From: Lytechinus pictus
Lineage: Eukaryota
Assembly: GCF_037042905.1 (NCBI RefSeq)
Contig: NC_087251.1
Location: 29,576,001-29,640,000, forward strand
Reading direction: 5' to 3'
Length of the DNA stretch: 64,000 nucleotides
Part shown: positions 5,007-61,376 of the stretch, in pieces
How the letters are laid out: each line of letters opens with the position of its first letter
Numbering within the stretch: the stretch's first letter is position 1
Notes under the pieces: model-generated
What the model was told of the DNA's origin: nothing
Databases searched by the model: none
Seen by the model: only the letters and a program-made list of their open reading frames with translations
Made by a program: the position numbers and the translations under genes

Positions 5007-22276
<17,270 letters not shown>

Positions 22277-23689
22277 TGCTGGAAGATATAAAGCATAAAA
22301 ACTATAATTGAGAATCATTATGGTCTTATGATCTTATGAAAGATATAGTGAAGTGTTCCAAATTTGTCTTCCTGTAACCCATGGTATAAACATGTTGATA
22401 CTGATGTGATACTTGATCTTCCCTCTGGCTCTATATCACAATCATGTCTCCCGCCTTTTCAACTATACCACATAACTATCCATGTCCCCCTCGATCCCCC
22501 TCTCTCTCATAACGTTTATTATTCATGTACGAATTCTCATGCACACACAAAAATCTTGTCGACCTATACAAGCATTTTAATGATATTCACTGAACTGGTG
22601 TAGCTTGCAAATCATTGATCGTTCATTTTGTAAAAGGCCTTTATCCATTTGCCGCTCTCTTTCTATGCATGGACCTACTACTACTCTGACAGAGTATAGT
22701 TTCATGCTCTATAATATGGAACCGCGTATATATATATATAAACATGTACAAAAACTTAAAAATAACCACCCAATTGTCATTTTACTTGGAACCCCCATCA
22801 CACTTTCAAAACAATCCCTGCGTTAACCCAGGGACGACTCAAGCAAGGAGACGGTATTAAAAAGTTGATAAAAAGGAGATATAAAGTGAGAGAGAGATAG
22901 AGAGTTCCAGAACCCTATTTTGGATAGCATTTTGTCTCGTTTTCCATTTTCTTTCCGTTTTCCTCTCCTCTTCAACTTTTCTAAAAGTATTGGAGGCTGA
23001 TCACCCCTGCCCCCACGCAGCTGGCTTTCAATCATACCATTATCCACGATAGTACGTATATTCACAGGCATGATTGGATGACAGAAAAGTTCGACTGTAT
23101 AAATACTTGACAATATTCCTCTCATGCACATTCCCAATTTTTAGGTAATCTCTCCATCAAGGTTTCCCTTTTGATGCGGTATATACCCCGGCCAATCACT
23201 GTATACTTTTTGAGACATGTATATCTCTATGACCCCGTCCTTGGTGTTACAAAAATAAAGTTCAGTCATTTTTGTCAAAAAGCACTTTCATATTGTTTGC
23301 CTTTTGTTTGCACTTTTCGCTTTCACATAATCGAGTTTTTAAGTTCAATGTCTCTTTATTTTTCACATAAAGACACATTGAAACAATGTATACCTTTCCC
23401 CACTTCCTGGGGCGGTATTCTGATGTTTTTATCTTTAAAATATTTTATTTTATCTGAGATAAAATGGATCTCAGAATACCACCCCTGGATAATAAGTGAC
23501 AGTTCAGAGGGAATAAACACCTGCTGTAATATAAAAAAATAATAATAACATGGATTACATCAATATAGAGGCAGAAAAGGGGGATTGTTAATATGTTATA
23601 CTTCTGTGTAAAAGACTTATACAAATAGCAAAACACTGCACATGGGTTGATGGGTATACCCCTTGTAAAAAAAAACCATGGTTTGATGT

Positions 23690-25370
23690 TAAGGTAAAAC
23701 CATGGTTTTGCATTGGATCCATCGTACAGTAATTTCATAGTTTAACCATAGTAAGATATGGTTTAATTATGGTGAAATCATGGTGCACTAGTGTTTAACC
23801 ATAGTTAAACTATAGCTTTAGCATGGGTAAACCATGGTAACCATGGTTAAATGGTGTTAAATTGGAACGCACTTACCATGACATTACTATGGCATAACCA
23901 TGGTCACAACTGTGTTTTTACCATATTTTAACAATGGTTAAGAAAGTATAAAACCATGGTAAAGAGAAGGTGAAACCATGGTTAGAAAAAGGTGAAACCA
24001 TTGTTTTACAGCTGCCAAACCACATAATTACAACCCGAATCACGGTAAAACCATAATCAATTGTATGGTAGACCCACCTTTTGACCATAGTGCAATATTG
24101 TATGATGATGGTTAAACCATGTCAAAGTACTGTCTAGCCATGGTTTAACCATGGTTTACCACGGTTAAACTATAGGTTTAGCATGGGTAAACCATGGTAA
24201 CCATGGTTAAAAGGTGTTAAATTGGAACGCACTTACCATGACATTACTATGGCATAACCATGGTCACAATTATGTTTTTACCATAGTTTAACCATGGTTA
24301 AGAAAGTATAAAACCATGGTAAAGAGAAGGTGAAACCATGGTTAGAAAAAGGTGAAACCATTGTTTTACAGCTGCCAAACCACATAATTACAACCCAAAT
24401 CACGGTAAAACCATAATCAATTGTATGGTAAACCCACCTTTTAACCATAGTGCAATATTGTATGATGATGGTTGAACCATGTCAAAGTACTGTCTAGCCA
24501 TGGTTTAACTATGGTGTACCACGGTTAAACTATAGGTTTAGCATGGGTAAACCATGGTAACCATGGTTAAAAGGTGTTAAATTGGAACGCACTTACCATG
24601 ACATTACCATGGCATAACCATGGTCACAACTGTGTTTTTACCGTACTATAACCACGGTTAAGAAAATGTGAAACTATGGTTAAGAAAGTATAAAACCATG
24701 GTAAAGGGTAGGTAAAACCATGGTAAAGCAAAGGTGAAACCATGGTTAGAAAACGGTGAAACCATTGTTTTACAGCAGCCAAACCACATAATTACAACCC
24801 AAATCACGGTAAAACCATGATCAATCATATGGTAAAACCACCTTTTAACCATTAGTGCAATATTGTATGATGATGGTTAAACCATGTCAAAGTACTGTCT
24901 AACCATGGTTTAACCATTGTATACCACGGTTTAACCATAATGTGCCACAGTTAATCGATGGTTTCATTGTAGATAAACCATGCCTACCATGGTTTAACCG
25001 TGGTTACAACCTTGTTTTTATTGTGGTAAATCCATCGTTTCAAAGTGTCTTTACTATGGTGAAGAAAAGGTGAAACAATGATTTTAAAACAGAAACAGCG
25101 ATAATAACATGGTTATGCAATGAAATCCAAAGTATAACCATGGTTTCACTACAAACCAATCATAGAATTACCATGGTCTTGCATCCTCAAAATCATGGTA
25201 AAAGCATGGTTAATATTGGATCCATTGTGCGACATACCCATGGTTTAACCATGGTGCATGATGGTCTGATGATGGTTAAACCATGGTGCACCTTGGTCTG
25301 CCCATGGTTTGGACATCCTTCAACCGTGATCGTACTACAGTTACTGTGATTTAACTATGGTAAATTTGAA
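23690..25370. repeat. Left subterminal array: about 360-bp higher-order units built from AACCATGGTT palindromes
   Basis: gcatgggtaaaccatggtaaccatggttaa recurs at 23821, 24181 and 24541; degenerate continuation to about 25370 and again at about 25990-26160. Confidence 0.9.
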
Positions 25371-27080
25371 AGGATTTACAACAGTATTACCATTTCCATT
25401 CATGAATTCATCGTGCATAAATTATCTCGGCACGAGCAGACGACTTAGACTCGAACTATGATCGAAATAAACTTCGAATTAGTGGTGAATAGGCATCATA
25501 ATTACACAATAGGTGTTATTTTGGGGGCAATGTAGATCAAGTAAGTAGTAGTCAAGTTGGACATTACTGTTTATTTTGATGATTGTGTTAACCAAGCAAA
25601 TCGGCCGGTCGACGTATTTTTTTTTTCTTTTCGATGCACCGATTTCGCAAAATCTGCACCGGCGCTCGATGACATCGATCAAACACCGATTTTAAAAACG
25701 ATCAGTTATGATATTTCAAAATCTTTGAGTTTTTTATATTGACACCTAAACATGGCCTAAGTTCAGTAACCCCAGATGACCTTTGACCTTGATCATGTGA
25801 CCTGAAATGTATAGCAGATCGATCAGTGATACTTGGTTACCCTTATACCCAAGTTTCATGAAATAGGACCAAATTCTTCCAAAGTTATTATACCATTTCG
25901 AAAACTTAACAAAGGTTAAGATTTGGTGTTGACGCCGCCGCCGGAAAAGCGGCGCCTATGTCTCACTTCTGCTATGCAAGTGAGACAATAAAACCGTGGT
26001 TCTCAAGCTCAAACCAAAGTTTAACTGTAGTTTCACAGCCAGAAACGATGATAAATCCCTGGTTCTACAAACCAAACCACAGTAGAGCCATGGTTTTACA
26101 ACCGACCTCTGGTATAACCATCAACTGCTATACCACCCAAACCAGAGTATAACCATGGTCGTATGGTCATACACAGCATACACGTCATCCAACCTGTCTG
26201 CTTTTTACCTCTATCATATTATCTGCTGAAATGAGATCAAGTGGAAACTCAGTATAAGGAGGACCTTGGGATCATGAACCTTGTTATTATACCTGGAATC
26301 TAACTTCACCAGGGCACAAAAACAAAAGGACCTTGGACCAGCAAATTTGACTGTTATATTGGGAATCTCTGTATATTGAGTTTCTAGTGTATCAGCGAAA
26401 GAAAAGAGTCAATTAAAATACAGTTACAATGTACACATTCGGCTACATCATCAAAGAGCCACATTGGTGATGGTATAATAAGAAATTACATTTAAAATTG
26501 TAGGTCAGTCAGACAGATATGACAGAGGTCATATTCCACACTACACATCGCCACTTATTGTATCAATCAGTGAGTGATCACACAATGACCTAAAAAGGGA
26601 CAAAATGCAAATCAGTGTTAAGAACAACGCAATGAAAACTTTTAATAAAAATAAAGTCAAACACATCTAATACAGTACTACATGTACAGCTCTGGAAACA
26701 TTACCCAAGTTAGCTGACAAAAGAGGCAAGTCTTTATACATGGCAGGTTTGAATACATATCTATAAAAGAACCCACATAAATTTTAATACATTCTTTATA
26801 AATTTTGTACTTTTCACACAAACAGTTAGCACAGATATGGCAAGCTAAATTAAGTAAGGAATGTATACATGTACTCCTGAAAACTGTTTTATTACTGCTG
26901 ATTTCATATAACTGATTTGGCCAAGAAGACATGTTAGAAAGACTTTATACGAAAAACAAAAGAAAATAACTAGATGGATTCTTGACTGCACAGTCGAAAT
27001 TTATGCCTCCGCCATTGCCACTAGATCAGAAATATGTTGCACAGGTAATTTCCCATAAATCTTCAAATTTGTTCTATTCT

Positions 27081-27470
27081 TTTTATATTAAATAATTTAT
27101 GCCTTATCCCAACATAAATAAACACTGAATGTTCAGTGCATGTTTGAGCTGCTAAGAAAAAAATTTACAGGCCGGCTCGGGTAGGAATCGAACCCACGAC
27201 CATCTGGTTATCAGACAGGCGTCATACCACTTGACCACCGAGAAGCCCGATGGCTGGTAGCTGGTTTGATTCACATAATAGCAGCAGGTACAGTACTATG
27301 TTGATATATCACATAATAGCAGCCAATAGCCATCGGGCTTAATTCCTGGTGGTCTAGTTGTATGACGCCTGTCTAGCAACCAGGAGATCGTGAGTTCGAT
27401 TCCTACCATAGCTGGCCTGAACATTTGGTGTTCACTTATATTTGGATAAGGCAAAAATTATTCAATAAAA
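27081..27470. repeat. Palindrome containing two divergent tRNA-like sequences
   Basis: Minus 27173-27248 and plus 27336-27414 each show an A box (TGGTCWAGTKG) and a B box (GTTCGATTCC); the flanking tails are also inverted copies. Confidence 0.75.
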
Positions 27471-28244
27471 TTAAATCTACCCAACGGAAAACCTTGATTG
27501 ATATTTTCTATTATCATATTGATCACTCTCATATATGCATCCAAGAACCATTAATATTGAATCTACAAGCAATTGTGACAAGAGACATGAACTCTCAGAC
27601 CTTTGAACTTCTCAAGTCAATGTCATAATGTATGCATTGTCCATATTTGAAATTGATCTATCGAAGTCTTTGGTTTATCACAAGAACAATTTCATGCATA
27701 CACTGACCTACAATCAAACTTGATATATGAAAATAATTTTTAGTATTCATAAAACACAAGAAAATTACTAAATGGATAAAAAAGTTGTGACCTTTATGAC
27801 CTTTGAACTTGGCCCTGCAACCCCCCCAAATTACCCCCCCCCCCCCTATATCAAGCATATATGTACCAAGTTTGGAGTTACTTCCTCTAACATTCCTTTT
27901 ATTTAGTTACACAAGAACAAGATATTTTAAGGCATACTGACCTCTGTGACCTTTGACCATGTGACCCCAAAATCCAATCAGATCATTCTCCCTCTATTAT
28001 GTATATAAAGAATGTACCAAGTTTGAAGTTATTAGCTCCAATGGTTAAGTTATCACAAGAACAGGACATTTTAAGGTATATAACGACCTCTGTGACCTTT
28101 CACCCGTGACCATAAAATCAAAACAAAGTATTATCCCCCCAGGATATACCCTCATACCAAGTTTGATGTAAAACCACTCCACGGTTCTTGAGATTTCGAC
28201 AAAGCAAAAAGGGGCGGACGTACGGACGACCCGAAAACGTAAAA

Positions 28245-28735
28245 AATTCAACAAGCATAACACTGAAAATTTCATCAAAATCGGAAGTAAAATAAGAAAG
28301 TTATGACATTTTAAAGTTTTGCTTCATTTCACAAAACGCTTATATGCACACCTCAGTCGGTAAGCAAATGAGGGAACTGATGACATCACTCACCCACTAT
28401 TTCTTTTGTATTTTATTATATGAAGTATGAAATATTTTGATTTTCTCGTCATTGTCATGTGAAATGAAGTTTCATTCGTCTCTGAACACGTGGAATTCGA
28501 TTATTTTAACATTTTGTGCTTCAGGCAAGGAGGTCCTAATCATCAAATTCGTAAAAATTGAAATATTGTATAATTCAAACAATAAAAAACAAAAGAAATA
28601 GTGAGTGACATCATTGGCTCACCTAGTTGTGCATATCACTGTTTTGTTGAAAATAAGCGAAACTTTAAAATTTCATGCTAGTTTGATTTTTCTCTATTTA
28701 TTCAAATCAGCATTTTCCTGGGGTGGACTAGACCT
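28245..28735. mobile_element. Truncated Kolobok-like element
   Basis: Ends GGTGGACTAGACCT|TTAA; internal inverted repeat (tgacatcactcacccactatttctttt / aaagaaatagtgagtgacatca); related fragment at about 33915-34350. Confidence 0.5.
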
Positions 28736-29010
28736 TTAATTTGAAGATTAGAGACATTGAGTCAAATTTTCAAAAACAGTCAATGAAACATACACTACTC
28801 AATGCATACTCTTCCCAGTGATACATGCTAGCAGGTTTTACATCCATATTTCATACTGTTAAGGTGACATTGCATTAACAAAGATATTACCTGAATTTCA
28901 CAAATTTACTTTCGAGCTACATATTCCAAAATATATCCAGATCATCTCCTATAGTGGTACATGTTAGCACCAAGTTTCACATTTATATTTCAAATTGTTA
29001 AGGTGACAAT

Positions 29011-32000
29011 GGCCCGTATTCTGATAGCGTGGTTTAACTTAACCCTGGTCTAAGTGTGGTAATAAACTGCCATATTTAAACCTAGGTTTAAGTTTCGTAT
29101 TCCGATAGCAAGGTTTAAGTTAACCCTGGTCTAAGTGTGGTAATAAATCTTCAAAAAGTTAAACTCGCGCTGGGGGTAGTTTAAGCCTGGTTTAAATCCA
29201 ACAAATCATGGCCAACAATTTTTTAGAATGTATGCCTATATTGCATTGCAAGCTACTTCCTCAGTTTTTAACCGATTTTCATGGAATTTGGAACACACAT
29301 TGTTCTCAAGGTAAGGAGGTGTAAGAATTTTTTTTTTCTTTTTTGGAAATTGTGTTGCCATGGAAACAGTATATTATGGCAAAAATTTTGCCGTTTAAAA
29401 TACTTTTATCAGTTTTCTACCAATTCTCAAGAAAGTTGGCTCACACATTGGTTTTGAGGTAAAGATGTGCAAGACACATATTTCCATGTGTCGGAAATTG
29501 TGTTGCCATGGTAACGGTATATTATGGCAAAAACTATGTATAAATCTTGCTGTTCCAACTACTTCCTCAGTTTTTAACCAATTCTCATGAAATTTGGCAC
29601 ATACATTAATGTTGAGGTGAAGATGTCCAAGATATATTTTTGTCTGTATCAGAAATCGTGTTGCCATGGTAACAACATATCAAATAAAGAAAATAAGGTG
29701 AGAATTTGGTAGTTCGAACTCCCATCTTTTTTCAGCCAATGCTCATAAAATTTGGCACACACATTAGTCTTAAGTTGAAGATGTGCAAGACATATTTTTG
29801 TATGTATGAGAAATCATGTTGCCATGGTAACAACATATTACATAATGAAATTAGGTGAAAATCTGAACTCCTTCATTAGTTTTCAACTAATTCTTATAAA
29901 AGTTGGCTCACACATTGGTTTTGAGGTATAGATCTGCAAGACATATATTTGTGTGTGTTGGAAACTGTGTTGCCATGGTGACAGCATATTAAATCAATAA
30001 ATGTGTAAACACATCTAATGGATTGAACTGCTTCTTCATTTTATGACATAGGCCTACATGTATGCTCATGAAATTTAGAACACGAGGTTTTGACTTGAGG
30101 TAAAATAATCTGCAAGGCACATTTTCTCATTCATCAAAATATGTGTTTGTACGGTAACTACACAAACCAAAATAAGATTAAGACAATGCTAACTGTTGTT
30201 TGGCTACACAGAGAACAACATGTAGCTGTAGGCTTAGTACTAGTTTTAAGGGGGTTGCTAGACCTCTAACTTTAGATCTCGAACTACAGTCCCACTACAG
30301 TCCCTAGCTTTAGATCTAGGTCTAGATCCTTTAGATCTAGTAATAGAAATAATCCAACGTTAGATCTCCAGCCTACTTTATTTAAAGGCCTAACGTTAGA
30401 TGATTAGATCTACTGTAGACTAGCCTCGAGACTAGCCAACATTTACTTTTTTATTTATTTAGAATCTACATTGAGCATGTTGAGAGTCTACAAATCTCTA
30501 GATCTAGACCTATTACATGTATTACATTGATATAGATCTAGTTCTAGGTCTAGATAGGGTTTAACTTTTAGTCTAAGTTATTTAGTCTAGATCTAGGCCA
30601 GCGTTAGATATTCTAGATCATACAGTAGACTAGATCAGCCAGTTAGGGCTAGGCTAGAAATCTAGAATGAATATATAGCACAGACTAACGTTAGGCCTAG
30701 GCCTAGATCTAAATTCTTACATAAATCTAGGCCAGGCCTAGTCTAGTCGAGACTTAACCCAGGGAGCTCCCTGGGTTAGTCAAGACTGAGCTGTTGGTCT
30801 AGGTTTGGGCCTGTTTTCTAGTCCTGGATCTGGAAACCTAAACGAGTCCCCAAAAATGTTTGAATAAAAAACTCTTCAAAGAAACAGATATGGACCTACA
30901 ACAAGAGTAGAGAGATGTCTTGGACTAATTCTAAATTTAGCCAGGCCCAGTTACTTGGCAAGCAATGCAGCGATAATCAGATCTAACACTGTACTGTCTG
31001 TAGACAGGAATAACCGTTGTTTCTGGGGATTTATTTTAAAAATTCTGACATTTTACTGTCATATAACATTGCCTTGGTGAGAGAGGCCAACGTAGAGTGT
31101 CATAATTCAGCGGAACAACCAATACAGAGACTGTTCAAAGCTTTTTGTCTAAGACAAATCAGATCCATTCCACTAGATCTAGCCTATGCCTAAGGTTACT
31201 TTAGAATAGTACTATAATCTATCCCTGTCCCTAAGCTAAGCCAGCCTAAGTCATGAATGCTGTTCTAGGCCTAGACCAATATTTATCTTCAGTCTTGGTT
31301 GCTCCACTAACTCACTAGACTATGTTTTGCTTCAGGAAAGTAAAAAAAAATCAAATAGGCCTAGGCCTAACTTAGTTAGTAAAAACTATGTTCAATTCTC
31401 CTCCAAACAATTGGGCCTAGGCCAGATCTAACTATAGGCCTATTTAGACCCAAGACTACTCTCAAAAGTTATAAAAAAATTCCCTTACTTAAAGTTAGAA
31501 TAAAGAGGTCGACCTCTTAGCTTATTGTTTTAGATCTAGGACTAGGGTCTAGACTCTAGTCTAGAGTGGTTGAGGGGAATCTATTCAATTTAGATTTTGA
31601 CAAACATGAAAATAAATAAATGGGACTGATACTCAAAAAACTGTGCAGGTCACTCGGTTTGGGGTTGAAATGTTTTAGTAATTAACAAAAATAAATATAA
31701 TTGAAATGAAAATTTCTTACCATATATGGGTGATGAATGCTTTTCTTTCACTACAATAGTTGTTATTAGTTTCCATAATATCAATTTTTTTAAGAAAAAA
31801 CGACTTTAGTGCCATTTTTTCAACTTTGTTGCAATCACCCCTGCAGCAGTAATTTACCAAAAAGGTGCTAGTCTTGGTTAAAAGAGGGTTATTATTTTCA
31901 AAAAGAATTTTAAACCCGGGTTTAACCCAGGTTTAGTTAAACCCGGCTATCAGAATACCAAAATAATTAAACTACACCTGGACCAGAGGTGAGGTTTAGA

Positions 32001-32069
32001 GGAGGTTTAATTAAACTAGGGTTAACTTTAGACTAGGGTTAAATTAAACCTGCTATCAGAATACGGGCC
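29011..32069. mobile_element. PIF/Harbinger-like non-autonomous element with internal tandem repeats
   Basis: TIR GGCCCGTATTCTGATAGC / GCTATCAGAATACGGGCC; interrupts an older repeat; a short relative lies at 58148-58379. Confidence 0.75.
29250..30170. repeat. Degenerate tandem repeat of about 120-170 bp (TGTTGCCATGGTAAC core)
   Basis: gaaattgtgttgccatggtaac-like motif recurs near 29350, 29500, 29660, 29820 and 29970. Confidence 0.8.
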
Positions 32070-35000
32070 CATGTGTTTAAACAAATAAATTTCACAAATT
32101 GACCTTTGACCTACATATTCCAAAATCCATTCAAATCGTCTTCCTAATGATGGTACATGTTAAACACCAAGTTTTTACATCCATACCTCAAGCTGTTTAG
32201 GTGATATTGCTTTGACAAGAAAATAACCTGAATTTTACATACAAGGACCACATATGAAGTTCACACCTTACGCAGTCTTGAATAAATTAAGTTTATGAGC
32301 AAGTTTGGATAATCCATGTGGAGTTAGAAGTTTCCAATACATTCTGTAAATCACTGTAATAGGGAAACATTGAGTAAGCAACTCTATCAACGTCCGTCAG
32401 CATTCAATCAATCTCGGGATATTCAGTATATTTCAAAATCTGGTGAGAAAACTCTGCATAGATTACCTGATCCTCATCAAAGAGCCAAGGATACTTCAGT
32501 CGGTCATCAGTGATCCTTGGCCGAGGGACAGAATTTATGATCCATGCCCTTCTGTCTGCCAGTGTCTTCTGCATGCAGAACTCAACTCTCTTGAAGTCTG
32601 GCTGCCTTTTTTTCAGTGCTCATCCACTCTATGTGCCTTGCAACAGTGTCAGATTTGGAAAGAATAAAAAATTATACTTAAAAAAAGAAAAAACAAAGAA
32701 TAAAAAATTATACTTAAAAAAAGAAAAAACAAATAGATTTAGAATCCTCATTCATTTAGTTTCTGTCAAATCACTTTTCATCCGAGTCCTTAATAGATAT
32801 TTACAGCAAATTTTACTATAATAGCAAGTTTTATGCAACGACACGCCAGTCTTGTTGCCAAAGACAAGAACAGAAAAGCTCCACTTGGTCACACTTTGCG
32901 ACTATCTGTCACAAACACACTGTACCAGTTAACATTTGGTGAAAGACCATAGCAGAACCATATACATGCGAATTAGACTAAAAAATTAACTTTAGGTAAA
33001 ATCTAACAGAGAAATGCATTACAAAATGTCACAACAATGTAGCCACTGTAAGATTCCTGCATCAATAGTGATACTCAAACATTAGTAAGTTATAATGCAA
33101 GAAATATTCTCATATTTTATGCATTTACTCACATTTACTTAATTCATCAACTCTTAAAGCGTTTAAAGCGTTTTTACTGGCCAAGTTCTAATCCTCTTTA
33201 ATAATCCTTCTGGTTGAGTCTCATATATAACTATGTCATGTGAAAAAGAGAAATGCCTTTAAGTTTGGCCATTATCAAGTAAAATATTTATCTAGAAGGA
33301 TGAATCAATTGCCAAAGAAATTAAATGGCATGCACTTGGGCAAGACTATGGCACATTGAGAGTTAATTGGGGTTTCTGTTTGGTACCAGATACTTACTCT
33401 CCACCATTCACCAGTTGCTGTGCACCGAGGACCACAGGTAGTTTGTAATTTTTACTCTCAATGGCCCTGTCACAAGTTCGTCCTCTTCCATGTCTGCAAA
33501 ATCGTAGAATTTGTCTTGCCATGTCTGCAGGAAAAATGTCTTCTTCTTTCACTCCAAATGTTGTGCACACCACCCTAAGCAGCTCCTGTTTTGAGGTCTC
33601 CTCTGACATGTTGGTTACCAACACCCTTCTTTGATTTTGGCCATATATCAATAAAAATTTGTACCTGGAATGAAAAGTAATTGATTTTCTTACTAAACCT
33701 GAATTTTGAATAAATAATGTATGCAAAGAGCTTTCAGGATAAATGTGTGTAATCAAAAGATATTGCATGTACATGGACACAAATATTCAGTTTTTGCCTC
33801 GATGCAAGAGGCAAACAAGACATATTCCAATGTTTGTCTGGGTTTGGTGATACATATTCCATTCATTTATCTTTTTTTCTAGTATTAGTTTCCTGTCTTC
33901 GAATATTAGTAAAATTGAAGGGATGGTCCAGGCTGGAAATATTTATATCTCAATAAATAGAAGAAAATTTACAGAGCAAAATGCTAAAAATTTAATCAAA
34001 ATCGAATAACAAATAAAGTTTTTGAATTTCAAATGATATTATTCCGGTGAAACAGTTCTAGGCATGTCTTTATGAATATTCATTAGGTTGGCTGGTGATG
34101 TCATATCCCCACTTGTTCTTTTGTGTTTTATTATGTGAAATTTGGTTTAATAAAAAAAATTGCTACCAAGAACTAAAACAATTGGATTGACAACTGATTA
34201 AGTGGACTAGTTATTTATTGCCTCAAGTTATTTCATCATAATGGAGACACATCATTTACACATGTATGAAAAAATGAAACATTTACGATGTCATGTAATG
34301 ACATAAGAAAAAATTGAAATGTGACATCATCAGCCCACCTATTGAATATTCATGATGATGTTAAGATGATGTTAAAGTATAGATCTAGATCTAGACCCTA
34401 GTCGATAGTCTAACGTTAATTAAGCCAGTAGGAGATCTAGTACAAAATTTTTCTTCATACTCGATGGCAGCCAACAAGTTTTTTTTTCAGGTAGGCCAAG
34501 CGCTAGCCTAAGTTAGGCCTAGGCTAGGGCCGGGACGCGAAATTATTTTTCCCACCGAGTTCTGGACCAACATATGAATATTCATGACTTGCGTCTTCGG
34601 ATTAAGAGTGCGCATGCGCGTGGACTTTTCCTCGACCAGTGCCGGTCGTAAGCATTCACGTGTCGTTGCTCAGAATGAATTAGCATCGTCAACTTACCGG
34701 TTCCCTTATAGTTACTTGGGCCTTATTGGCTTAAATCTATATCCAATTCTTAAACACTTATCAAACTAGCTGCCATTAATGGCAAGACATGGGCTAGGCT
34801 AGGGCTAGCTTAGGCTTGCGCATTAACTTTACCTCAAATCTGGACCTGTCTAATGCCTAACTTGTTAATACTAATAGTAATAGCCGACTAATGCCATGGA
34901 ACTTCGAACCGGTAAATTCCGAACTTTACGTTTGATTTCATTTACTATGGTTTAATATGTCTAGTCCGTATACAGAACCAGTCCTAGATCTAAAAAAAAA

Positions 35001-35338
35001 TATCTTAGTTCTAGTCTAGTCTCTAGATCTAGACTCTGATCTACGCTGTATCAGCATGGAACAACTAGTGTACCAAGGGGGGGGGCAGACTGCCCCCTGA
35101 CGATTTACAAATGATCCAGGGGACGTGCCCCCCTTTGAGAAGCCAAATTAATAATTTGTAATGTCAAAATGTAACAAAAAAAAAAGAATTATGTCCCCCC
35201 TTTTGAACGTGAAGATCTTTCTTTTTTTTTGCTTGTCAATTTTTTTTCAGCTAAGAAATCCTTAATTTGGGGTGAAGACGGGGATCAAGATCACTGACGT
35301 TAGTTTGTGCTTGACGTTAGAATACGTTCCATGCACTG

Positions 35339-36684
35339 CAGTGGCGTAGCTAGGATTTTTTCCTGGGGGTCACTGGGGGGGGTCCTTGCTTTTTCAGTGG
35401 GAGGGCACCGGCCATTTTTTCCGGTGTTTGTGTATGTGTCACAAGGGCGGATCAGACTTTCGCCAATAGGGGACGGGGCCCGAAATTATCTTTACCTATA
35501 TTTTCCCCGATCAGTCACTTCTTAGTTTTATTCTTATAAAACAACATAAACATGAAATAATATCATAAGCCTTATAAAAAGTGTGAGCGCGAAGCGCGAG
35601 CGATTAAAAAAAAATATTATGGGCAATGGAATGTGTGATCCTGAACAAGATTCGTATGCATGGTATGTAACTAGATGGTTACTGCAAACGCCAAGCACGA
35701 GCAGAAATTTGTATTAAATGTTCTAGCATTATCGAAAAGGGACCTGTTAAGGACTGCTTTCAGTTACCCACGAAGACGGTATATATTTCAATGATGCGAG
35801 CAATTTTTGACATTCCGACCTAAAAAATTGTCATTCTAAGCACTTTTTGTATTAATGAATGGGATAGGTATGTAACGAAACGATTGATGCGAGCGCGAAG
35901 CGCGAGAGGAAGAAAATTGAAATTTTAGACCTAAAAGCAGCACACTCTATTCATTTTTGTAATCATAAATAGGATATAGTTAATTGGGTATCATTAATAA
36001 TGCGATCGTGAAGCGTGAGCAGACAATTATTGATATTCTGATGTGAAACTGGATAATTTAAGCACATTTTAAATAAAGAACATGCAGGCTATCGCGCATG
36101 TTTTAGATTTAGACCTAGAATCTGGGCATTATGAATACATTTGTTTAATGGAACATTACGGAATACACGTAGACATTATAAACTTGGCAAATCAAACAAT
36201 GTGACCACGCAGCGTGAGCTTAAAATGCTGATATGTAGACCATAAAACGGACATTTTACAGAGCACTTAAATTTGTAAATGAAAAAAAAAATCATAATGA
36301 AAGCTCGAACGATGTCCGAGCTAAAATATGTTTTGTATATTGACTTCAAAACTTGCTCCATATCAGCCTATTGAGCAAGATGAATCTCATCAAACAGGCA
36401 ATTCTGGCGCGAAGCGCAAGCAAAAATTTTATATAGTAACATGAAATTTTTTTTTTTCAAGTCTTCTCCTCACATTATTTCATTCACTCGCGTTCCTCCC
36501 CTTATTTTCCTCTTCTTTTTTTTATTCTGTCTTTATTCTTCTTTTCCTTTTTCTTTTCTTTCTCCCCCCTTTTTTCTACTCTGCCAATTTTTTTCTGGGG
36601 GGGGGGGCACCTGGAAGGCTTACCAAATCTCGGGGGGGGGGGGCACGTGCCCCCAGCCCCCCCCCCCCCGTAGCTACGCCACTG
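35339..36684. mobile_element. hAT-like non-autonomous element inserted in the centre of foldback copy 2
   Basis: TIR CAGTGGCGTAGCTA / TAGCTACGCCACTG; 8-bp TSD ATGCACTG (35331-38, 36685-92); absent from copy 1. Confidence 0.9.
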
Positions 36685-37094
36685 ATGCACTGTCGTACCT
36701 AGGATGAAAGGGGGGCAAATTTTTGGAGGATATTTCGTCCGCGAAAAAATGTGACAAGCCCCCCCCAAAAAAATAGCATTTTTACATTACAAATTATTAA
36801 TTTGGCTTCTCAAAGGGGGGGGGCACGTCCCGTGAATCAGTTGTGACTCGTCAGAGGAGCAGTCTGCCCCCCCCCCCCTTTGGTACACTAGTGGTTCCAT
36901 GCTGATACAGCGTAGATCAGAGTCTAGATCTAGAGACTAGACTCGAACTAAGATATATTTTTTTAGATCTAGGACTGGTTTTGTATACGGACTAGACAAA
37001 CCATGGCAAATAAGCTAACATTTGTCTAAACCTAATTAAACGTAAAGTTCGGAATTAACCAGTTCGAAGTTAATCATGGCATTAGTCGGCTATT

Positions 37095-38917
37095 CAGTGT
37101 TGTAGTCAAGGCTCAAACATCCAAGGCCAAGGCTTCAATACCAAGGCTTCAATACCAAAGGCCAAGGCCAAGGCATCGAAACCCAAGGCCAAGGCCTGAA
37201 AACCTCAAGGCCAAGGCATTTCAAACTTACGATATACAGAACAATGAACTAACAATACTTCAGACGTCACACATGGTAAAATGTATGTGAGCGAGGGGAC
37301 TGAGCGAGAAAAAATGAACCTTTGTACATTTAAAACAAAAATAATTTCATGACAGAGACATATCAAAATAATGATATAGTTACCTGTGTACACATAATAC
37401 ATAATTTTTCTAGGCGATTTACATTGCAATAATTATTATTACCACGGTCATCTGATCCTGGCATTCTCAACGTATGTTTTTCTCCACTGGGACAGGGGCA
37501 GCAGAAAATTATTATTGGGGGGGGGGGTCAACGTCAAAAAGGCACTCATCTATCAAAATGAGTTTTTTGTGCAAACAGATACATGTATTTTCAAAATGAG
37601 ATTATGAACTGCGTAAAGTAATTGTGTGTTTTGTAGAAATTAAGTTGAGCAAAGGCTTTCTAAAGTGATTTTTAATTATAAGATAGATATTTTGATTTAG
37701 GTTCTACTTCTCAGCGACAAAGCATAGCGAGCAAGCGGTTTTGACAAAAAAAAATCGATTCTGAAGTTGTAAAACTTGATTTATGGTCAATTATGGGGCT
37801 AATCATTGTTAAAAGGGCATCCTTGCATGCGCAATGTTGCCAGCGCGAACCACCAGCTCAAACTTCTTGACATGTTGTGTAATAAGGCATGGAAATTAAG
37901 TATTCTGAGCTGGTTTTGTAATCATGAAAAAGATGTCTATCTAACTAAAAAGTAACTTTACGCTCGCTATTTTTTTAAAATATACTAACCAGTAAAGGAA
38001 GCAGTTAATTACTGCATTTTAAATAGGATACATAACTCACCAATGAAAATAATGCGAGCGCAAAGCGCGAGCTCAAAAATTTGTGATATTCCAACCTAAA
38101 AACTTGACATTCTAAGCATTTTTTTGTGTGAACGGGAAGAGAACGAGTACAATAACAAATTTTGTTCACTCGCTCGCTTCAATCACTTTCTTCTTTTTTT
38201 TGACAAAAACTTTGTTCTATATGCCATGCTTGGCCCCTCAAAGTTTCTGGCTCATCATGCCATTGACATAACCCATTTGGATATGACAAAATTGAAGACT
38301 GTGTTCAAGTTTACCAAATCTTTTCAGAATATCATTAAGACTTAAAACAATCTTGTTGGCCAAAGAAAATATTACAAGGAAAATCCTAATGGAATAGAAA
38401 TCAACCTTGTTATTGTTCTTTAGAGTTAGCTATGTTTAAAGTATAAAAATTGTTGTCAAAATTGCAGTCAGATGTCAAATTTATTCTTGTCATCAAAGCA
38501 CTATTATCTTGATCATGATCATTAATTTACTGTCATTATCATCATTAGTCATGATTACAACACATTACCAATACATAATGCTATTTTTCATAACTGCTGT
38601 ATTCTTTGTTTGAAAATTCTTGATAATGGTGACAATTACAAGAGATGACACTGCTAGTACACTTCTGGTGACTGGTAGTATTGACCATTAGTGTCATTAA
38701 ATATTAAAAAAACCAAAAACAATTGAAACATTTATAATTACTTATTTAAAACAAATGAAAGTACAAAATACAAAATGCCTTGAAATTTCAAGGCTCAAAA
38801 TCTTCAAGGCCAAGGCCCTCTCAAGGCCAAGGCTTGAATGTTCAAGGCCAAGGCTTTGAAAAAGCAGGCATTAAGGCGCCTTAAGGCCAAGCCGAGCATC
38901 AAGGCACTACAACACTC
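37095..38917. mobile_element. Second copy of the nested CAGTGTTGTAGT element, with an internal deletion of about 750 bp
   Basis: Reverse complement of 7149-9716; junction near 38157 skips roughly 7907-8659 of copy 1. Confidence 0.8.
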
Positions 38918-40429
38918 ATAGACAGGTCCAGATTTGATTTAATGCGCTAGCCTAAGCGAGCCCTAGCCTAGCCCATGTCTTGCCATTAATGGCAGCTAGT
39001 TTGATAAGCGTTTAAGAATTGGATATATAATATATAGATCTAAGCCTGTAAGGCCTATGTAACTATGTAAGGGTACCGGTATAATTTGACGATCGATGCT
39101 AATTCATTCTGAGCAACTGAACGTGAATGCTTACGACCGGCACTGGTTGAGGCAAAGTCCACACGCATGCGTACTCTTAATCCGAAGACGCAAGTCATAT
39201 TGCAATATTCATATGTTGGTCCAGAACTCGGTGGGAAAAATAATTTCGCGGCCGGGACTAGGCTATGAGTACGACGTGTTCCACCATAATAATAAATCTA
39301 GTCCAAAGGCAAAGTCCAAGGCAAGCTCAAGCCTATATATAATTATATAGCCATAAATAACTTTTAGGCCCTACATGTAGCCAGCCCCAATGCCTGGCTT
39401 CAACTTCAAGTTGAAGTCAGAATACATTTCTAGACCCATGCAACACTCCTAATCAAAATAAATGCAGCAACAGCATTACAGACTAAGGCAAACTCTTGAA
39501 ATAATCCACTGCACTGACAGTGACACTGCCTGCTGCAGAGTGCAGTACCGTACGGTTCTACTCGGGCTTGGTACGGTACGCGCACAATCCGCCGAGTGTT
39601 CAATTTCCGAGTCATGCAAGGCCAAGGAGGTGCCAGGAGTGGACTAATTCACGAGAATGCCCAACAGATTACTGATTAGATAAGCTTACTTACCGTTAAC
39701 TATCTCCTGACAGTTCCATAATTTGTCTGTTCTCCTATAGTTTCAGTTAAAAAATTAGTTGAATGCAGTTAATTGCCTGAATTTCATGAACTTGAAGCTT
39801 AGCTAGCCCTTGGCCTTCGAAGCATTAAGCTGATTGTATCTGCACGGCGTACGTGTGTTGTGTGTGCATTTGTCTATGGTGTGTATAGCATACATGTACT
39901 GTGCGGGTTGTGCGTTACACATGTGGTACTCGGTGGTACTAGTACATCGACGCGCATAAAAAAAGGGCGCGAAAATGAGCGGGAGGGGTGGGGGGGGGGC
40001 AGGCGGGGAATGCGCGAAATCCGTGTTGAACACAATTATTAAGTAGACAGGTTCAAAATGACAAATGATATATATATACGTATAGACAGACAATGTTTAG
40101 TGACTGGGCAGACATATTTTGAAATTATACAAAAAGATAATATAGTCCTATTAAAAAAAAAAAAACACCAGCGGCCACCCCCGGCCCGACTACCTTCAAG
40201 ATCAACAACAACGGCCCTGCTTAGTTAGTAATTCAGGTCGCAGGCCTTTATTATTTTAGTCATGCCTTTGGATGGCCGAAAGTTAGTTAGTCAGAAACCA
40301 CAAATGGTGTTAGTCAAGCCTGTCTTTTTACGAAATACGAGTACTAGTCCACAGCTGAGTTAGTCGTGACAAGCTTTATAGGCCCAGACTAACAAAGTTA
40401 GTACCTTGGTAAAACGGGAATTTAATCAT

Positions 40430-42395
40430 GCTTTTTGTAACCAATGTTTTTTCACTTTCATTAAACCACGGTTAAAACCATGGTTATATAACAATCATTT
40501 TCAAACTATCATAAAACCATGGTTAAAATCATGGTGTATAACCGTCGTTTTCAACCTTGGTAAAACGCAAATTTAACCATGGTTTTGTAACCACTGTTTT
40601 TACACTTTCATTAAACCACGGTTAAAACCATGGTTATATAACCATCATTTTCAAACTATCTTAAAACCATGGTTAAAATCATGGTTTATAACCGTCGTTT
40701 TCAACCTTGCTAAGACGAATGTTTAACCATGGTTTTGTAACCACTGTTTTGACACTTTCATTAAACCACGGTTAAAACCATGGTTATATAACCATAATTT
40801 TCAAACTATCATAAAACAATGGTTAAAATCATGGTGTATCACCATCGTTTTCAACCATGGTAAAACGGAAATTTAACCATGGTATTGTAACCACTGTTTT
40901 TACACTTTCATTAAACCACGGTTAAAACCATGGCTATATAACAATCATTTTCAAACTATCATAAAACCATGGTTAAAATCATGGTGTATAACCGTCGTTT
41001 TCAACCTTGGTAAAACGGAAATTTAACCATGGTTTTGTAACCACTGTTTTTACACTTTCATTAAACCACGGTTAAAACCATGGTTATATAACCATCGTTT
41101 TCAAACTATCTTGAAACCATGGTTAAAATTTTGGTTTATAACCGTTGTTTTCAACCTTGCTAAGACGAATGTTTAACCATGGTCTCGTAACCAATGTTTT
41201 TACACTTTCATTAAACCACGGTTAAAACCATGGTTATATATAACAATCATTTTCAAACTATCATAAAACCATGGTTAAAATCATGGTGTATAACCGTCGT
41301 TTTCAACCTTGGTAAAACGGAAATTTAACCATGATTTTGTAACCACTGTTTTTACACTTTCATTAAACCACGGTTAAAACCATAATTATATAACCATCAT
41401 TTTCAAACTATCATAAAACCATGGTTAAAATCATGGTGTATAACCGTCGTTTTCAACCATGGTAAAACGGAAATTTAACCATGGTATTGTAACCACTGTT
41501 TTTACACTTTCATTAAACCACGGTTAAAACCATGGTTATATAACCATCATTTTCAAACTATCATAAAACTATTATTAAAATCATGGTGTATAACCGTCGT
41601 TTTCAACCATGGTAAAACAGAAATTTAACCATGGTATTGTAACCACTGTTTTTACACTTTCATTAAACCACGGTTAAAACCATGGTTATATAACCATCAT
41701 TTTCAAACAATCTTAAAACCATGGTTAAAATCATGGTGTATAACCGTCGTTTTCAACCTTGGTGAAACGGAAATTTAACCATGGTTTTGTAACCACTGTT
41801 TTTACACTCTCATTAAACCACGGTTAAAACCATGGTTATATAACCATCATTTTCAAACTATCTTAAAACCATGGTTAAAATCATGGTGTATAACCGTCGT
41901 TTTCAACCTTGGTAAAACGGAATTTTAACCATGGTATTATAAATACTGTTTTTATGCTATCATAAAACCATGGTTTAAATCATGGTTTTATAACATTGAT
42001 TTCCAACCTTAGTAGAACGGGAGTTAAACCAAGGTTTCCTAACCATTGTTTTTATACTACTGTGAAACCATGGTTACAACCATGGTTAAATTACTATGGT
42101 TTTTTTCACCAAAGTAGAACGATGATTTTTTCATGGTTTTATAACTATTGTTTTTTAACTTTCTTAAAACTGTGGTATAATGATGGTTTTTATAACCATG
42201 GTTTTAAAATCGTCATAAAATGACATTTTTATCATGTTATTATAACTATGGTATTTTAACAATGGTATTACCATACTTCCGCCACACATTTACCTTGGTT
42301 ATGATTTTAAAACCATGGACTACCATCGATCCATTGTAAAACCGCCCCTAACCATGGTTATACCATGATTACGGTTGTAAAACCATGTTTTTTTT
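40430..42395. repeat. Right subterminal array: about 13 tandem 120-bp units plus degenerate tail
   Basis: cattaaaccacggttaaaaccatggttatata recurs every ~120 bp from about 40460 to 41830. Confidence 0.95.
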
Positions 42396-43816
42396 TTATA
42401 AGGGACTCGCCTATTGGACTGAGCACTCGAATTCCAGTTCCCAGGGAGTGGAGTGGGGAAAGTGACGGGGTCCATGGTGTCCACCCGGGCCATGTCTGTT
42501 TTTAGACAGATCTAACAACATTTTCGGGCGTATAGGCTTCAAGCCCACACCCCCTACCTCCGGGGGTGGGGGGCAGTCAAAATAATGTACACATGCGTGA
42601 CCAAATTATTTTCAAACACCCCATAAACGAGTTTTTCTCTGTGTGCGAAATAACCCCAAACAAGTTTTTCGCCGGCTTTATTTACACATTTTGGCCTTTA
42701 AACAAGTTGTCGCCAGACTTAGACCCCGGGCAAAAAGCTTGGGGGAAAACATACCCTAAACACGTTTGGCTATATATCTAGTCTTAAAAATGACCTGCGA
42801 TTTACCATTGACCAGTCTTTCAAACCACCCTTTAAAAAAAATCGGTGTTTTTGATACCCTTAAGGCCCGCGTCCAAAACTGAAAAAAAAAACTTTAAACG
42901 CGTTTTTTTTTTGTTCACGCATGTGTACAGCAATATTATATATTTGACCCCCCCCCCCCCCCCCCCCGGCTTCAAGCATGGACCTATTGATAGGTCCCTG
43001 CTTCAAGCAAGAAGGGAGTTTGGAAAAAAAAATTAAAAAATGATCTTTAAAAAATTATGCCATATATACAATTCGCTAGAACTGAAATAACATAGAGAGA
43101 GGGAGAGAGAGAGAGAAAGGGGGAGGGGGTGGGAACAGGGAAGGGGAGATATTGATGTATTAAGGCAAGAATACATGTTTGAATATTCAACTGATTTTTT
43201 TTAGATTTCAAAGAGCTAGATTGCTTTAATTCAATTCGAGTCCCGTTTTGTTAATCTCTGAAATTTAAAGGTAGAAAATTAATGAGAAGCATGGTGAAAC
43301 AAAAATGGGATTGACCATTGTATGAGACCAAAACAGGCAGGAATACGTTGGTTTACCAAGTGCTCCGCCTCCGCAGATGTTTCAACGACATTGGCATACT
43401 GCCAACTTACTATCGCATCGTACATGATGCAATAACACGACTTTGACGAAGGTATGATATTCATATTCAATGATGATTCTTGAATTCATACAAGAGAGGC
43501 TTATCGTTATATCAGTTTTTATAAGAACAAAATAATAGAGTTTCTGATTTTTTTAAAGTAAACAATCAATATTTATTCAATAAGAAATTATCCACGTGAG
43601 GTTAAACAAGTGATATGTGATTATCTTGACCTGATTTGTATAATGTTTCACACTGTTCCCTGTGTATAAATGGAACGGTCAACCGTTAAGATTCCTGCGT
43701 GACGTCAGACGATGCCGAGAATCGCTTGGCTAGTCTAGGCAACAAGACTCTTTTTCCAAGGGAGGCGGGACGCGAATACGTTGACAGTTTTTGCTGAATC
43801 AAGTTTGCTTTCTTGC

Positions 43817-44985: not shown

Positions 44986-45364
44986 ATGGGCGACGACAGA
45001 AAGCCAGAATATGATGCAAAGTACGAAATGGCTCCTCAATCAGAAGCCGATCTCGAAAAAGGCGAAGTGAAGATCGCTGATCCCAGCGATGAGAAGAAAT
45101 CTGCCGACGTGGATAATGAATGGGGTGGCTTGAATAAAGCCGAGCTGCTTGAAGTTGCCGACACCCCGTTCTGGAATTGGACCCGTAACATCTTGCTGAT
45201 TCTTTTCTGGGTTGGTTGGCTTGCGATGCTTGTTGCTGCGATTGTTATTGTGGTGAAAGTACCCCGATGCCCAGAAGTTGAGTGGTGGGAAAAGAGTGTT
45301 TTCTACCGAGTTATGCCCCAGTCATTCAAGGATAGCAACGGCGATGGTTATGGCGATCTCAAAG
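44986..45364 (+). CDS. SLC3A2: SLC3A2-like exon 1 (cytoplasmic tail, TM helix, light-chain Cys)
   Basis: ccaagATGg start context; MGDDRKPEY...[34 protein letters not shown]; gtaaac donor. Confidence 0.9.
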
Positions 45365-58147: not shown

Positions 58148-58379
58148 GGCCCGTATTCTGATAGCAGGTTTAACTTACCCTAGTCTAAAGTTAACCCTGG
58201 TTTAACTAAACCTCACCTCTGCTCTAAGTGTAGTTCATATTATTTTGGCATTCTGATAGCCAGGTTTAGTTAGTTAAACCTGGCTATCAGAATACTAAAA
58301 TAATCAAAATACGAAATATGGGGTTTATTACCACACTTAGACTAGGGATCTGTTAAACCAGGGTATCAGAATACGGTCC
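58148..58379. mobile_element. Short MITE of the GGCCCGTATTCTGATAGC family
   Basis: Same termini and subterminal sequence as 29011-32069. Confidence 0.75.
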
Positions 58380-58606
58380 TATGTGTTTTTGTGGGGGGGG
58401 GGGGGGGGGGGGGGGTATGCGCTTTCGTGAGAGATAAAAAAAAGAAGAAGAGGAAGGAATACATCGTCTACCATTACACGCATGGAAAAAAATGTACAAA
58501 GAAACTCTTGTTTCAAAGATGAGAGAAATGGGGGAAGATTAGCTTTTAGAATTGAAGCAGAATAGACTAAATAACTCCACTTTAATAAAGTCAGCTAGTG
58601 ACAATA

Positions 58607-60552: not shown

Positions 60553-60951
60553 CTACACTCTATCGTAGTAGAGCTTGACTTCAACATCGCCCAAGACGAA
60601 CGTGCACAAGGTTTGGTCTCCAACCAGCTCGCGAATGAGCTTGACACCGCGGCCGGTATCGGTGATCACCAAACGATCGCCATCCCAAGCAGCTGTGACG
60701 TCCGCCTCGATCATGTTGCCGAACATGACGAACTTGCAAGTTTTCCCGACCTCGACCGCGTTGACCCGCTCGCCCATCGAAGTTTGACTGACGATCTCGA
60801 TGCGGTCGCCATTGTGTCTCACCTCGACTGTGAGTTTGGAGATGAAATTGGGTGGTGGTCGCTTGTCTTCGGGTATTTGAAGTTTTTCGAGCAGTGGCGA
60901 GAAATCGTCGAATTTAGCGACGGCCCATTTACCGGAAAAGTCGACAGGCAT
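60553..60951 (-). CDS. Fatty-acid-binding protein / intracellular lipid-binding protein family member, intronless CDS, 132 aa
   Basis: N-terminal FSGKW motif, typical iLBP length, WDGDRLV, RELVGDQ and YYDRV C-terminus; caccATG start context; polypyrimidine tract and AG acceptor 12 nt upstream of the ATG. Confidence 0.88.
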   Translation of the reverse strand: MPVDFSGKWAVAKFDDFSPLLEKLQIPEDKRPPPNFISKLTVEVRHNGDRIEIVSQTSMGERVNAVEVGKTCKFVMFGNMIEADVTAAWDGDRLVITDTGRGVKLIRELVGDQTLCTFVLGDVEVKLYYDRV

Positions 60952-61376
60952 GGTGAGGAATTTCTGAAGGAAAGAAAGAAAAAAAAAAAATTATACCAAT
61001 GATAACGGATATTTACGAAAATTTGAAACCTCGATCGATCTTGCCTTTTTGTTGCTGGTACTGGCTTAATTTGTCACAACCATTCAGGGCAAACATTAAC
61101 CATGTCATCAGAAGTGCCGTTTTGTAGAGACTTTGCCTGACATTGTGCCTCACATCGACCACTATATGCACGTCACCCTGCTCTATCACAACCGTTCTAT
61201 CGCGTTTTATTATCATTATTATTTGTTTATTTGGTGGGGGATATGACTGAAGAATAGAAAACGCTACCGTGATTATAGAAGCTCCGCTATAGAAGTTGGA
61301 ATGCATAATTTATAATGGTGCGTGATATATCATTCATTCATAAGCCAAGCTGGTTAATCAGCGGGATCTTTCCAGA

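Follow-up and report, generated by a model that had tools for sequence, protein, structure and literature searches.

Two SLC3 amino-acid-transporter genes stand side by side in the window (the whole 64,000-nucleotide stretch of Lytechinus pictus DNA analysed here), and 22,709 bp separate the stop codon of the first at 22276 from the ATG of the second at 44986. Two satellite-like arrays lie between them. The locus raises the question whether these arrays are separate tandem repeats or the ends of one inserted element. We found that positions 23660-42404 (18,745 bases) very probably form a single non-autonomous animal CACTA/EnSpm-type DNA transposon, a deletion derivative. Matching inverted ends, the lack of a transposase and the broken pieces of a helper gene together make one decayed element of this type the most likely explanation.

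The boundaries of the element are as follows.

23658..23659, plus strand: left AC, putative 2-bp target-site duplication (flanking sequence)
23660..23684, plus strand: left terminal inverted repeat with CCC start (23/25 against the right end; 23659-23800 also in a public contig)
42380..42404, minus strand: right terminal inverted repeat with GGG end (match to the left end)
42405..42406, plus strand: right AC, putative 2-bp target-site duplication (flanking sequence)

The left boundary reads GGGTATAC and then CCCTTGTAAAAAAAAACCATGGTTT, the terminus starting at 23660, and the right terminus is the reverse complement of the left end, stops at 42404 and is followed by ACTCGCC. An earlier reading made from the letters alone (the sequence-only reading) had claimed matching termini at these two positions with AC on both sides. 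Both claims were borne out: 23 of the 25 terminal bases are identical, whereas the best of all other sites in the 64 kb, both strands included, reaches 19/25, and AC abuts both termini. In addition, CCCTT[AG]TAAAAA occurs in the window at these two places only, and a second, looser homologous block pairs about 23702-23728 with 42345-42320. The CCC start fits animal CACTA/EnSpm elements, whose short terminal inverted repeats begin with CCC or CAC in the portion of PMC1636069 consulted. The AC pair is a putative target-site duplication; the chance of a 2-bp match at this composition is 0.073. CCC termini with 2-bp duplications have been described for animal CACTA elements (PMC1636069, in part), and a 2-bp CA duplication for non-autonomous zebrafish CMC-EnSpm (PMC13189230, in part). 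The empty site was not seen among the contigs from four runs, of which none crosses 23659 from the flank and those of the related species end at 23403. A metagenome scan for the terminus gave one match (L001), which we take as chance, since the surrounding 1.2 kb held no motif array.

Behind the termini lie the subterminal regions.

23660..25400, plus strand: left subterminal array, 360-bp unit repeated 2.5-3 times, 37 AACCATGGTT-like sites (tandem repeats, at most one mismatch)
25437..25990, no strand: unrelated-looking piece breaking the left motif region (boundaries approximate, by eye)
25990..26170, plus strand: inner remnant of the left subterminal motif region, 3 sites (motif count)
40400..42404, minus strand: right subterminal array, 150-bp unit repeated 10.6 times, 52 AACCATGGTT-like sites (tandem repeats, motif count)

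The repeated motif that marks a CACTA/EnSpm derivative was found in both subterminal regions. All 37 exact copies of AACCATGGTT in the window fall within the two end arrays (12 left, 25 right, none in the interior, none outside), in agreement with the earlier claim that both arrays share one palindrome. When one mismatch was allowed, there were 37 copies on the left, 3 at 25990-26170 and 52 on the right, none in the 14.2 kb of interior and 3 in the 45 kb outside. The left sites are often spaced 22, 11 or 33-34 bp apart, end at 25279 and restart at 25992-26151. The tandem periods are 360 bp (2.5 copies at 23804-24702, units differing by 3-5%) and 150 bp (10.6 copies at 40403-41994, eight in-register units with a mean difference of 5%), and the two arrays share short motif-level matches only, the best at 41 bits. 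If maize En/Spm is a guide, these palindromes would be protein-binding sites needed in cis, read by an accessory protein or by the transposase's own DNA-binding domain, and each end would have expanded its own tandem unit around them.

The different periods (360 against 150 bp), and a 25-mer that is partly palindrome plus a poly-A run, would also suit two unrelated satellites whose ends match simply because they share the palindrome and A-runs. However, 15 of the first 17 terminal bases, a stretch largely outside the palindrome, agree (next best site 14), the matching ends coincide precisely with the outer edges of the arrays, and a transposon-linked gene lies between the arrays. Furthermore, the left boundary recurs in another flank, and this has already largely refuted the satellite explanation, which we consider extremely improbable. 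The recurrence comes from a public contig (X1 record 8), which matches 23659-23800 at 141 of 142 bases from contig position 1647 onwards. The left end there stands behind 1,646 other letters, which suggests a second insertion site. The search covered the left end, and the copy is one contig in one of four runs. It shares one base past the boundary (23659), perhaps by chance or through a one-base uncertainty of the boundary. Meanwhile, the DNA run of a related species, consisting of filtered contigs in which a hole proves nothing, gave no match to 23660-23800 at 85% or more.

The sequence-only reading had overlooked remnants of the element's own accessory gene in the interior.

32467..32647, minus strand: middle-exon remnant of a SAMD3-like accessory gene (phmmer, tblastn, alignment)
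33398..33664, minus strand: N-terminal-exon remnant of the SAMD3-like accessory gene (tblastn, splice sites)
39694..39719, minus strand: candidate first coding exon of the accessory gene, inferred (reads MELSGDS*R; GTAAGT donor at 39693)

The middle exon reached a best phmmer E of 4.4e-14 at 64% identity; it carries a frameshift near 32610, has lost its 5′ part and ends at a splice donor at 32466, where homologous exons stop too. Its profile E-value is circular, because the profile was seeded by this exon, and the match of the N-terminal exon is independent (tblastn E 1e-6 with P0007 and 7e-7 with P0153). The latter exon has an acceptor at 33665, a frameshift near 33540 and a donor at 33397, and the relative's model has a ubiquitin-like domain in the matching region. 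The phase of the candidate first exon fits the 33665 acceptor (compare MMEIEGSIR/HKLLL of P0153), and its donor is the only strong one that lies upstream of the acceptor exon and outside the nested repeats. Both interior remnants belong to one protein family and lie in the correct order on one strand (minus), the right array being the 5′ end relative to this gene.

Among the 17 proteins found by phmmer, two (P0009 and P0013) are unrelated repeat proteins, and the profiles and alignments exclude them. A word-index search with the 71-aa exon frame gave 0 matches of 7 candidates, and in a Pfam scan of 26 window frames the interior frames yielded nothing except one match at E 0.086. In addition, all eight local alignments of the accessory C-terminal and middle regions and of the transposase ends against the interior scored no better than 30 shuffles each. 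Thus, these accessory exons and transposase ends are absent or unrecognisable. The accessory protein matched no Pfam family at all. An atlas search with P0153 returned SAMD3-like proteins and a cluster carrying CIDE-N on 21% of its members, and the exon query was uninformative. In the low-confidence P0153 model (pLDDT 51), the N-terminal ubiquitin-like domain alone was matched (Z up to 6.4). For a possible BEN domain or helix-turn-helix in the helical middle domain there was no Pfam match and no useful PDB sequence match, and neither appears among the fold matches listed, all of which are taken up by the N-terminal domain. We found no paper in the open-licence literature linking SAMD3-like proteins with transposons.

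No transposase had been recognised in the element before, and this still holds for the window: an HMM built from 90 transposases, run with filters off, gave no match in the element below E 8.9. The longest interior open frames reach at most 130 aa, and the intact DDE frame of an autonomous element was not found. The accessory family is linked to a transposase in sea cucumbers. In Apostichopus, XP_071839080 (829 aa) and XP_071839081 (555 aa) have consecutive accessions and are named isoforms X1 and X2, and the second is 46% identical to the SAMD3-like P0007. This locus recurs as XP_071810621/2 on another chromosome-scale contig (827/829 and 551/555 identity). The element's exons are 58% identical to the Apostichopus accessory protein over 50 aa and about 30% over the N-terminal exon. 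The fold of the X1 protein matches RAG1 (E 4.8e-10), BbRAGL and HzTransib, and its D, D, C(2)C, H(3)H and E are kept in 57-60 of 60 relatives; these are the motifs named for the CMCT clade in the consulted part of PMC12730594. Furthermore, two further gene models, P0008 and P0037, have such a transposase fused to an accessory exon. Within CMCT, the assignment to EnSpm proper as against Plavaka, ESTA or Lanisha is provisional: Transposase_21 matches, found in 5 of 15 relatives, stay below the Pfam cut-off (best E 9.4e-6), and a further relative matches Plavaka instead. The derivation of the interior from a two-gene element with a CMCT-type transposase is therefore seen through sea cucumbers, not through this genome.

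With no transposase present for classification, the span could also be read as one element of another kind, foldback-like or with another DDE transposase, that captured SAMD3-like exons as cargo. However, the long arms of a foldback, inverted copies of each other, were not found (best shared match 41 bits), the likeness between the arms ceasing past about 75 bp, and the CCC ends with a 2-bp duplication, together with the partner of the accessory gene, point to the CMCT clade. We regard such an origin as very unlikely. Two separate insertions of one family close together, which lost their inner ends so that the 18.7 kb never moved as one, would accord with the 7% chance of the 2-bp match and with the unrelated units of the two arrays. 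Nevertheless, the interior holds no terminus-like sequence (best match 18/25), the accessory remnants run in one order on one strand from the candidate first exon near the right end, and it is nothing unusual for a CACTA element to have its repeats arranged differently at the left and right (PMC2613891, in part). Two insertions are improbable.

The reading of one CACTA/EnSpm-type element, as first proposed from the letters, is supported by the collinear exon remnants of a transposase-linked gene family and by the left end behind a different flank, with a boundary at most one base from 23660. The parent, as the sea-cucumber relatives suggest, would have been a single transcription unit that started at the right end, ran leftwards and alternatively gave a DDE transposase or a SAMD3-like accessory protein. 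Its transposase frame, upstream of the 33665 acceptor, would since have been deleted together with several accessory exons. A transposase from an intact relative would have cut and pasted the element in trans. The insertion likely duplicated AC and enlarged a roughly 4-kb gap between the SLC3 genes to 22.7 kb. Subtracting the element and a single AC leaves 3,962 bp, close to the 4 kb between coding sequences estimated earlier. The element starts about 380 bp past the 3′ end of the first gene's transcript. Raw RNA run X21 gave no coverage of the SLC3 gene or the element end, and a search of the literature on sea-urchin SLC3 duplication found nothing relevant among the papers listed.

About 10.6 kb of the element consists of nested repeats.

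26968..28740, no strand: nested repeats including a palindromic 266-bp piece at 27161-27426 (self-BLAST; outer boundaries approximate, by eye)
29011..32069, no strand: nested element with GGCCCGTATTCTGATAGC inverted ends and 158-bp internal repeats (self-BLAST, tandem repeats)
33913..34360, no strand: probable nested short repeat (sequence; boundaries approximate, by eye)
34527..39257, no strand: nested 4.7-kb foldback/composite element with 8-bp duplication CTAGGCTA (self-BLAST)

The element at 29011..32069, which we take to be Harbinger-like, has related sequence at about 58150-58380, and a target-site duplication was looked for around 33913..34360 and not found. The foldback has an inverted paralog at 6785-11084 with 4-7% substitutions. 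Between the left end and its second copy, the difference is a single base in 142. Given these divergences, this copy may have acquired its nested repeats before it moved and not afterwards.

The element is of an ordinary kind, a further member of an already known type. SmTRC1 of Schistosoma mansoni and its Aedes and Tribolium relatives have CCC inverted repeats of 10-54 bp and 2-bp direct repeats, and animal CACTA/TRC elements produce from a single unit a transposase plus a second spliced product and occur as truncated copies (PMC1636069, in the portion consulted). The element shares with them the CCC-started inverted ends, the 2-bp repeats (putative here) and the truncation. However, it differs from what that portion describes in lacking a transposase, in its 1.7-2.0-kb palindrome arrays at both ends and in its SAMD3-like second protein. 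Zebrafish CMC-EnSpm N49/N49B (PMC13189230, in part) likewise have a short, C-started, A-rich inverted repeat and a 2-bp duplication (putative here), and they depend on a two-protein autonomous element, a dependence that would apply here too; their partner is large (PMC11202377, in part). In contrast, as far as these excerpts go, the zebrafish elements have CAC ends and a length of 2.5 kb, against CCC ends and 18.7 kb, and the ichabod copy sits in a 3′ UTR, whereas the element here lies past the transcript end.

Maize En/Spm and dSpm, as presented in the accessible part of PMC2613891, also combine short terminal repeats with asymmetric subterminal motif repeats, which act in cis in maize, and a transposase with an accessory protein, and their deletion derivatives are moved in trans. 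The soybean Tgmt* (20.5 kb, same excerpt) is near the element in size (~20 kb). However, the plant elements described there have CACTA ends and 3-bp duplications, whereas the motif here is a perfect palindrome in long tandem units; the accessory protein here has no Pfam family, and its link to TnpA is hypothetical. The Apostichopus japonicus locus (XP_071839080.1/XP_071839081.1, copy XP_071810621.1/XP_071810622.1) encodes the same accessory family as the element's exons. Compared by its proteins, it differs in being intact with an 829-aa transposase, under the RefSeq label uncharacterized.

Maize TnpA binds its subterminal repeats. We tentatively propose, as a rather doubtful possibility, that the echinoderm and fish SAMD3-like family is an animal counterpart of TnpA with a separate origin, whose ubiquitin-like oligomerising and helical DNA-binding domains would read the helical-turn-spaced AACCATGGTT and pair the ends, and that such a two-protein system recently moved the 18.7-kb composite whole, nested repeats included. 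The role of array binder is weakened by the available portion of a 2026 preprint (10.64898/2026.08.24.746577), in which TnpA-like proteins are restricted to flowering plants and the DNA-binding domain in animals is usually fused to the transposase.

For the locus, these results mean that one insertion very probably makes up 18.7 kb of the 22.7-kb spacing of the SLC3 paralogs, and it left the 3′ UTR of the first gene untouched. In an annotation, the two "satellites" and the "SAMD3-like" pseudogene would belong together as pieces of a single transposon. Furthermore, the element connects a defined 10-bp palindrome with a family in which the uncharacterised SAMD3-like protein is the accessory protein, and this allows a simple binding test.

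The element of 18,745 bp lies between two tandem SLC3 genes. The two SLC3 genes and an open frame of this window are as follows:

4971-22276, + strand, first SLC3 (4F2hc/rBAT-like) gene, with SLC3A2_N and amylase C-terminal matches
44986-56036, + strand, second SLC3 (4F2hc/rBAT-like) gene, with the same two matches
60553-60990, - strand, open frame of 145 aa, single exon by resemblance

The last frame has no Pfam match at E 0.1 and presumably resembles a single-exon fatty-acid-binding/lipocalin-type protein.

The sequence-only reading had described matching inverted termini flanked by AC, with the same palindrome behind both ends. The left end begins at 23660, preceded by AC, and the right end is its reverse complement, finishing at 42404 with AC next. 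The terminal 25-mers are identical at 23 of 25 positions, and no other place in the window exceeds 19/25; the chance of the AC match alone, a putative 2-bp duplication, is 0.073. In addition, all 37 exact AACCATGGTT palindromes found in 64 kb were inside the two arrays (12 in the left, 25 in the right), and many left-array sites were 11, 22 or 33-34 bp apart. The array units are 360 bp on the left, whereas they are 150 bp on the right, and the likeness between the arrays is at the motif level only. Furthermore, the SLC3 coding sequences had been expected to lie about 4 kb apart without the element, and the gap of 22,709 bp indeed falls to 3,962 bp once the element and one AC are removed. The earlier observation is real and was correctly read.

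To look at the left flank, contigs of four of 23 listed public sequencing runs were compared with 21950-23800. In one run (X1), one 1,834-letter contig, among the matches listed, corresponded to 23659-23800 at 141/142 bases from its position 1647, and its first 1,646 letters matched nowhere in 21950-23800. On this single contig, the most plausible reading is another insertion site, whose boundary falls within one base of that proposed before. None of the four runs crossed 23659 from the flank side, and thus the empty site was not seen. In the run from a related species (X11), the contigs cover the flank up to 23403, and no match to the left element end was found. In runs X5 and X1, transcript contigs of the first SLC3 gene stop at 23243-23283, close to a polyadenylation signal (23254); therefore, the element starts ~380 bp beyond this transcript. 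This gene has a 3′ UTR of ~1 kb within 21990-23283, and a high-copy 50-bp repeat (23436-23490) lies between the UTR and the element.

In the interior, a minus-strand frame of 71 aa (32404-32619) matched 17 of 1.84 billion representative proteins, the best at E 4.4e-14; two of the 17 were unrelated repeat proteins and were discarded. The named relatives (10 matches were looked up) are holothurian, and several are labelled "sterile alpha motif domain-containing protein 3-like". This is a database label only, and neither SAM nor any other Pfam domain was found in these SAMD3-like relatives. A second minus-strand exon (33664-33398) was matched within the window by the N-termini of two full-length relatives, P0007 (E 1e-6) and P0153 (E 7e-7). 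Both exon remnants are frameshifted, have proper splice sites and follow the order of the protein; a search of the interior did not recover the exons expected between them or after them. Meanwhile, 39719-39694 may be the first exon of the SAMD3-like accessory gene: this candidate combines a strong donor, in a phase compatible with the acceptor at 33665, with a resemblance to the P0153 start and contains one in-frame stop. The coding remnants of the interior had escaped the sequence-only reading.

That reading had recognised no transposase, and the profile search agrees. A profile of 90 relatives of at least 750 aa, from 119 listed besides the query, was run on all six frames with filters off and gave nothing below E 8.9 in the element; the best score in the window (E 0.26) fell on a GAT microsatellite outside it. 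The sole tblastn match at E <0.05 was the tail of P0037, the second gene model fusing transposase and accessory exon, and it lay on the accessory exon. Once a 4.7-kb insertion is subtracted, ~1.3 kb separates the candidate first exon from the acceptor, and ~450 bp of that is repeat-like, so a transposase frame of 2.4 kb has no room there.

The element very probably arose by deletion from a two-gene parent of the CACTA/EnSpm type, and a cut-and-paste mechanism acting in trans would have moved it, duplicating 2 bp at the target. Passages of PMC2613891 describe the subterminal repeats of maize and soybean as cis sites bound by TnpA. By analogy, the AACCATGGTT palindromes may be protein-binding sites. 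A TnpA-like role of the accessory protein is disfavoured, because the DNA-binding domain in animals is usually part of the transposase, according to passages of a 2026 preprint (10.64898/2026.08.24.746577). The structure model of the accessory protein is poor (pLDDT 51); its N-terminal domain is ubiquitin-like in the model (Z up to 6.4), a fold that is a common one, and its middle domain is helical.

Of the 18.7 kb, about 10.6 kb is nested DNA, with several boundaries placed by eye. Repeats of the window include the following:

34527-39257, clearest nested piece, a foldback/composite element that carries an 8-bp duplication and has its inverted paralog at 6785-11084
29011-32069 and about 58150-58380, GGCCCGTATTCTGATAGC-ended element containing five internal repeats of 148-158 bp, inside an older tandem repeat
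14750-16511 and 49285-49879, inverted-repeat elements, both older, with arms about 76% alike

For the GGCCCGTATTCTGATAGC-ended element, no clear target-site duplication was found. The composite piece and its paralog are inverted copies of one element with a 3.5-kb core. Both copies have a separate 8-bp duplication as well as inserts that the other lacks (7908-8662 in the paralog, about 35340-36685 in the composite piece), and thus the inverted-repeat nest moves as a unit. The two copies differ by 4.4-6.6% substitutions, and the arms of 34527-39257 differ by 6.9%. The left end of the host element has 1 difference in 142 bases from its second copy, a short stretch with possibly conserved ends that is no proof of order. 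Because the nested piece is more diverged than the left end, the composite may have been assembled before it moved; such a reversed or mixed order has a little under an even chance. The sequence-only order, insertion first and nested repeats gathered later, has slightly better than an even chance.

Many of these features are already known for CACTA/EnSpm elements. For animal CACTA elements, PMC1636069 (2006) describes ends that begin with CCC, duplications of 2 bp and second products made by splicing; the element at 23660-42404 shares the CCC ends and may share the 2-bp duplication. Parts of other reports describe a zebrafish non-autonomous CMC-EnSpm with 2-bp duplication (PMC13189230), its large two-protein partner (PMC11202377) and En/Spm elements of 16-20 kb (PMC6431247); the general features in portions of PMC9191631 and PMC6004678 agree.

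In the gene model P0008, the accessory protein is fused to a transposase-like half, which has 149 relatives from echinoderms, molluscs, ticks and fishes. In Apostichopus japonicus, the transposase XP_071839080 (829 aa, P0035) and the accessory protein XP_071839081 (555 aa, P0153) have consecutive accessions and are named isoforms X1 and X2. A second copy of the pair, XP_071810621/2, is on another contig (identity 827/829 and 551/555); judged from these sequences, the two loci would mark a recently moved two-gene element. The structure model of P0035 (pLDDT 90.6) matches RAG1 (E 4.8e-10), BbRAGL and HzTransib. Among 60 aligned relatives, D304 is conserved in 59, D398 in 60 and C418 in 57, and C421, H628, H632 and E652 are each conserved in all 60. 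We infer that D304, D398 and E652 form the catalytic triad; the conserved cysteines and histidines correspond to the motifs C(2)C and H(3-4)H, which PMC12730594 gives for the CMCT clade. Pfam support on 15 proteins is weak, with Transposase_21 below the cut-off in five and Plavaka above it in one. No paper linking SAMD3-like proteins to transposons was found in the open-licence literature at the listing level. The RefSeq "uncharacterized" pair XP_071839080.1/XP_071839081.1 is apparently an intact two-gene CMCT-type transposon at two loci with >99% protein identity, and the partner of the SAMD3-like gene family is a transposase.
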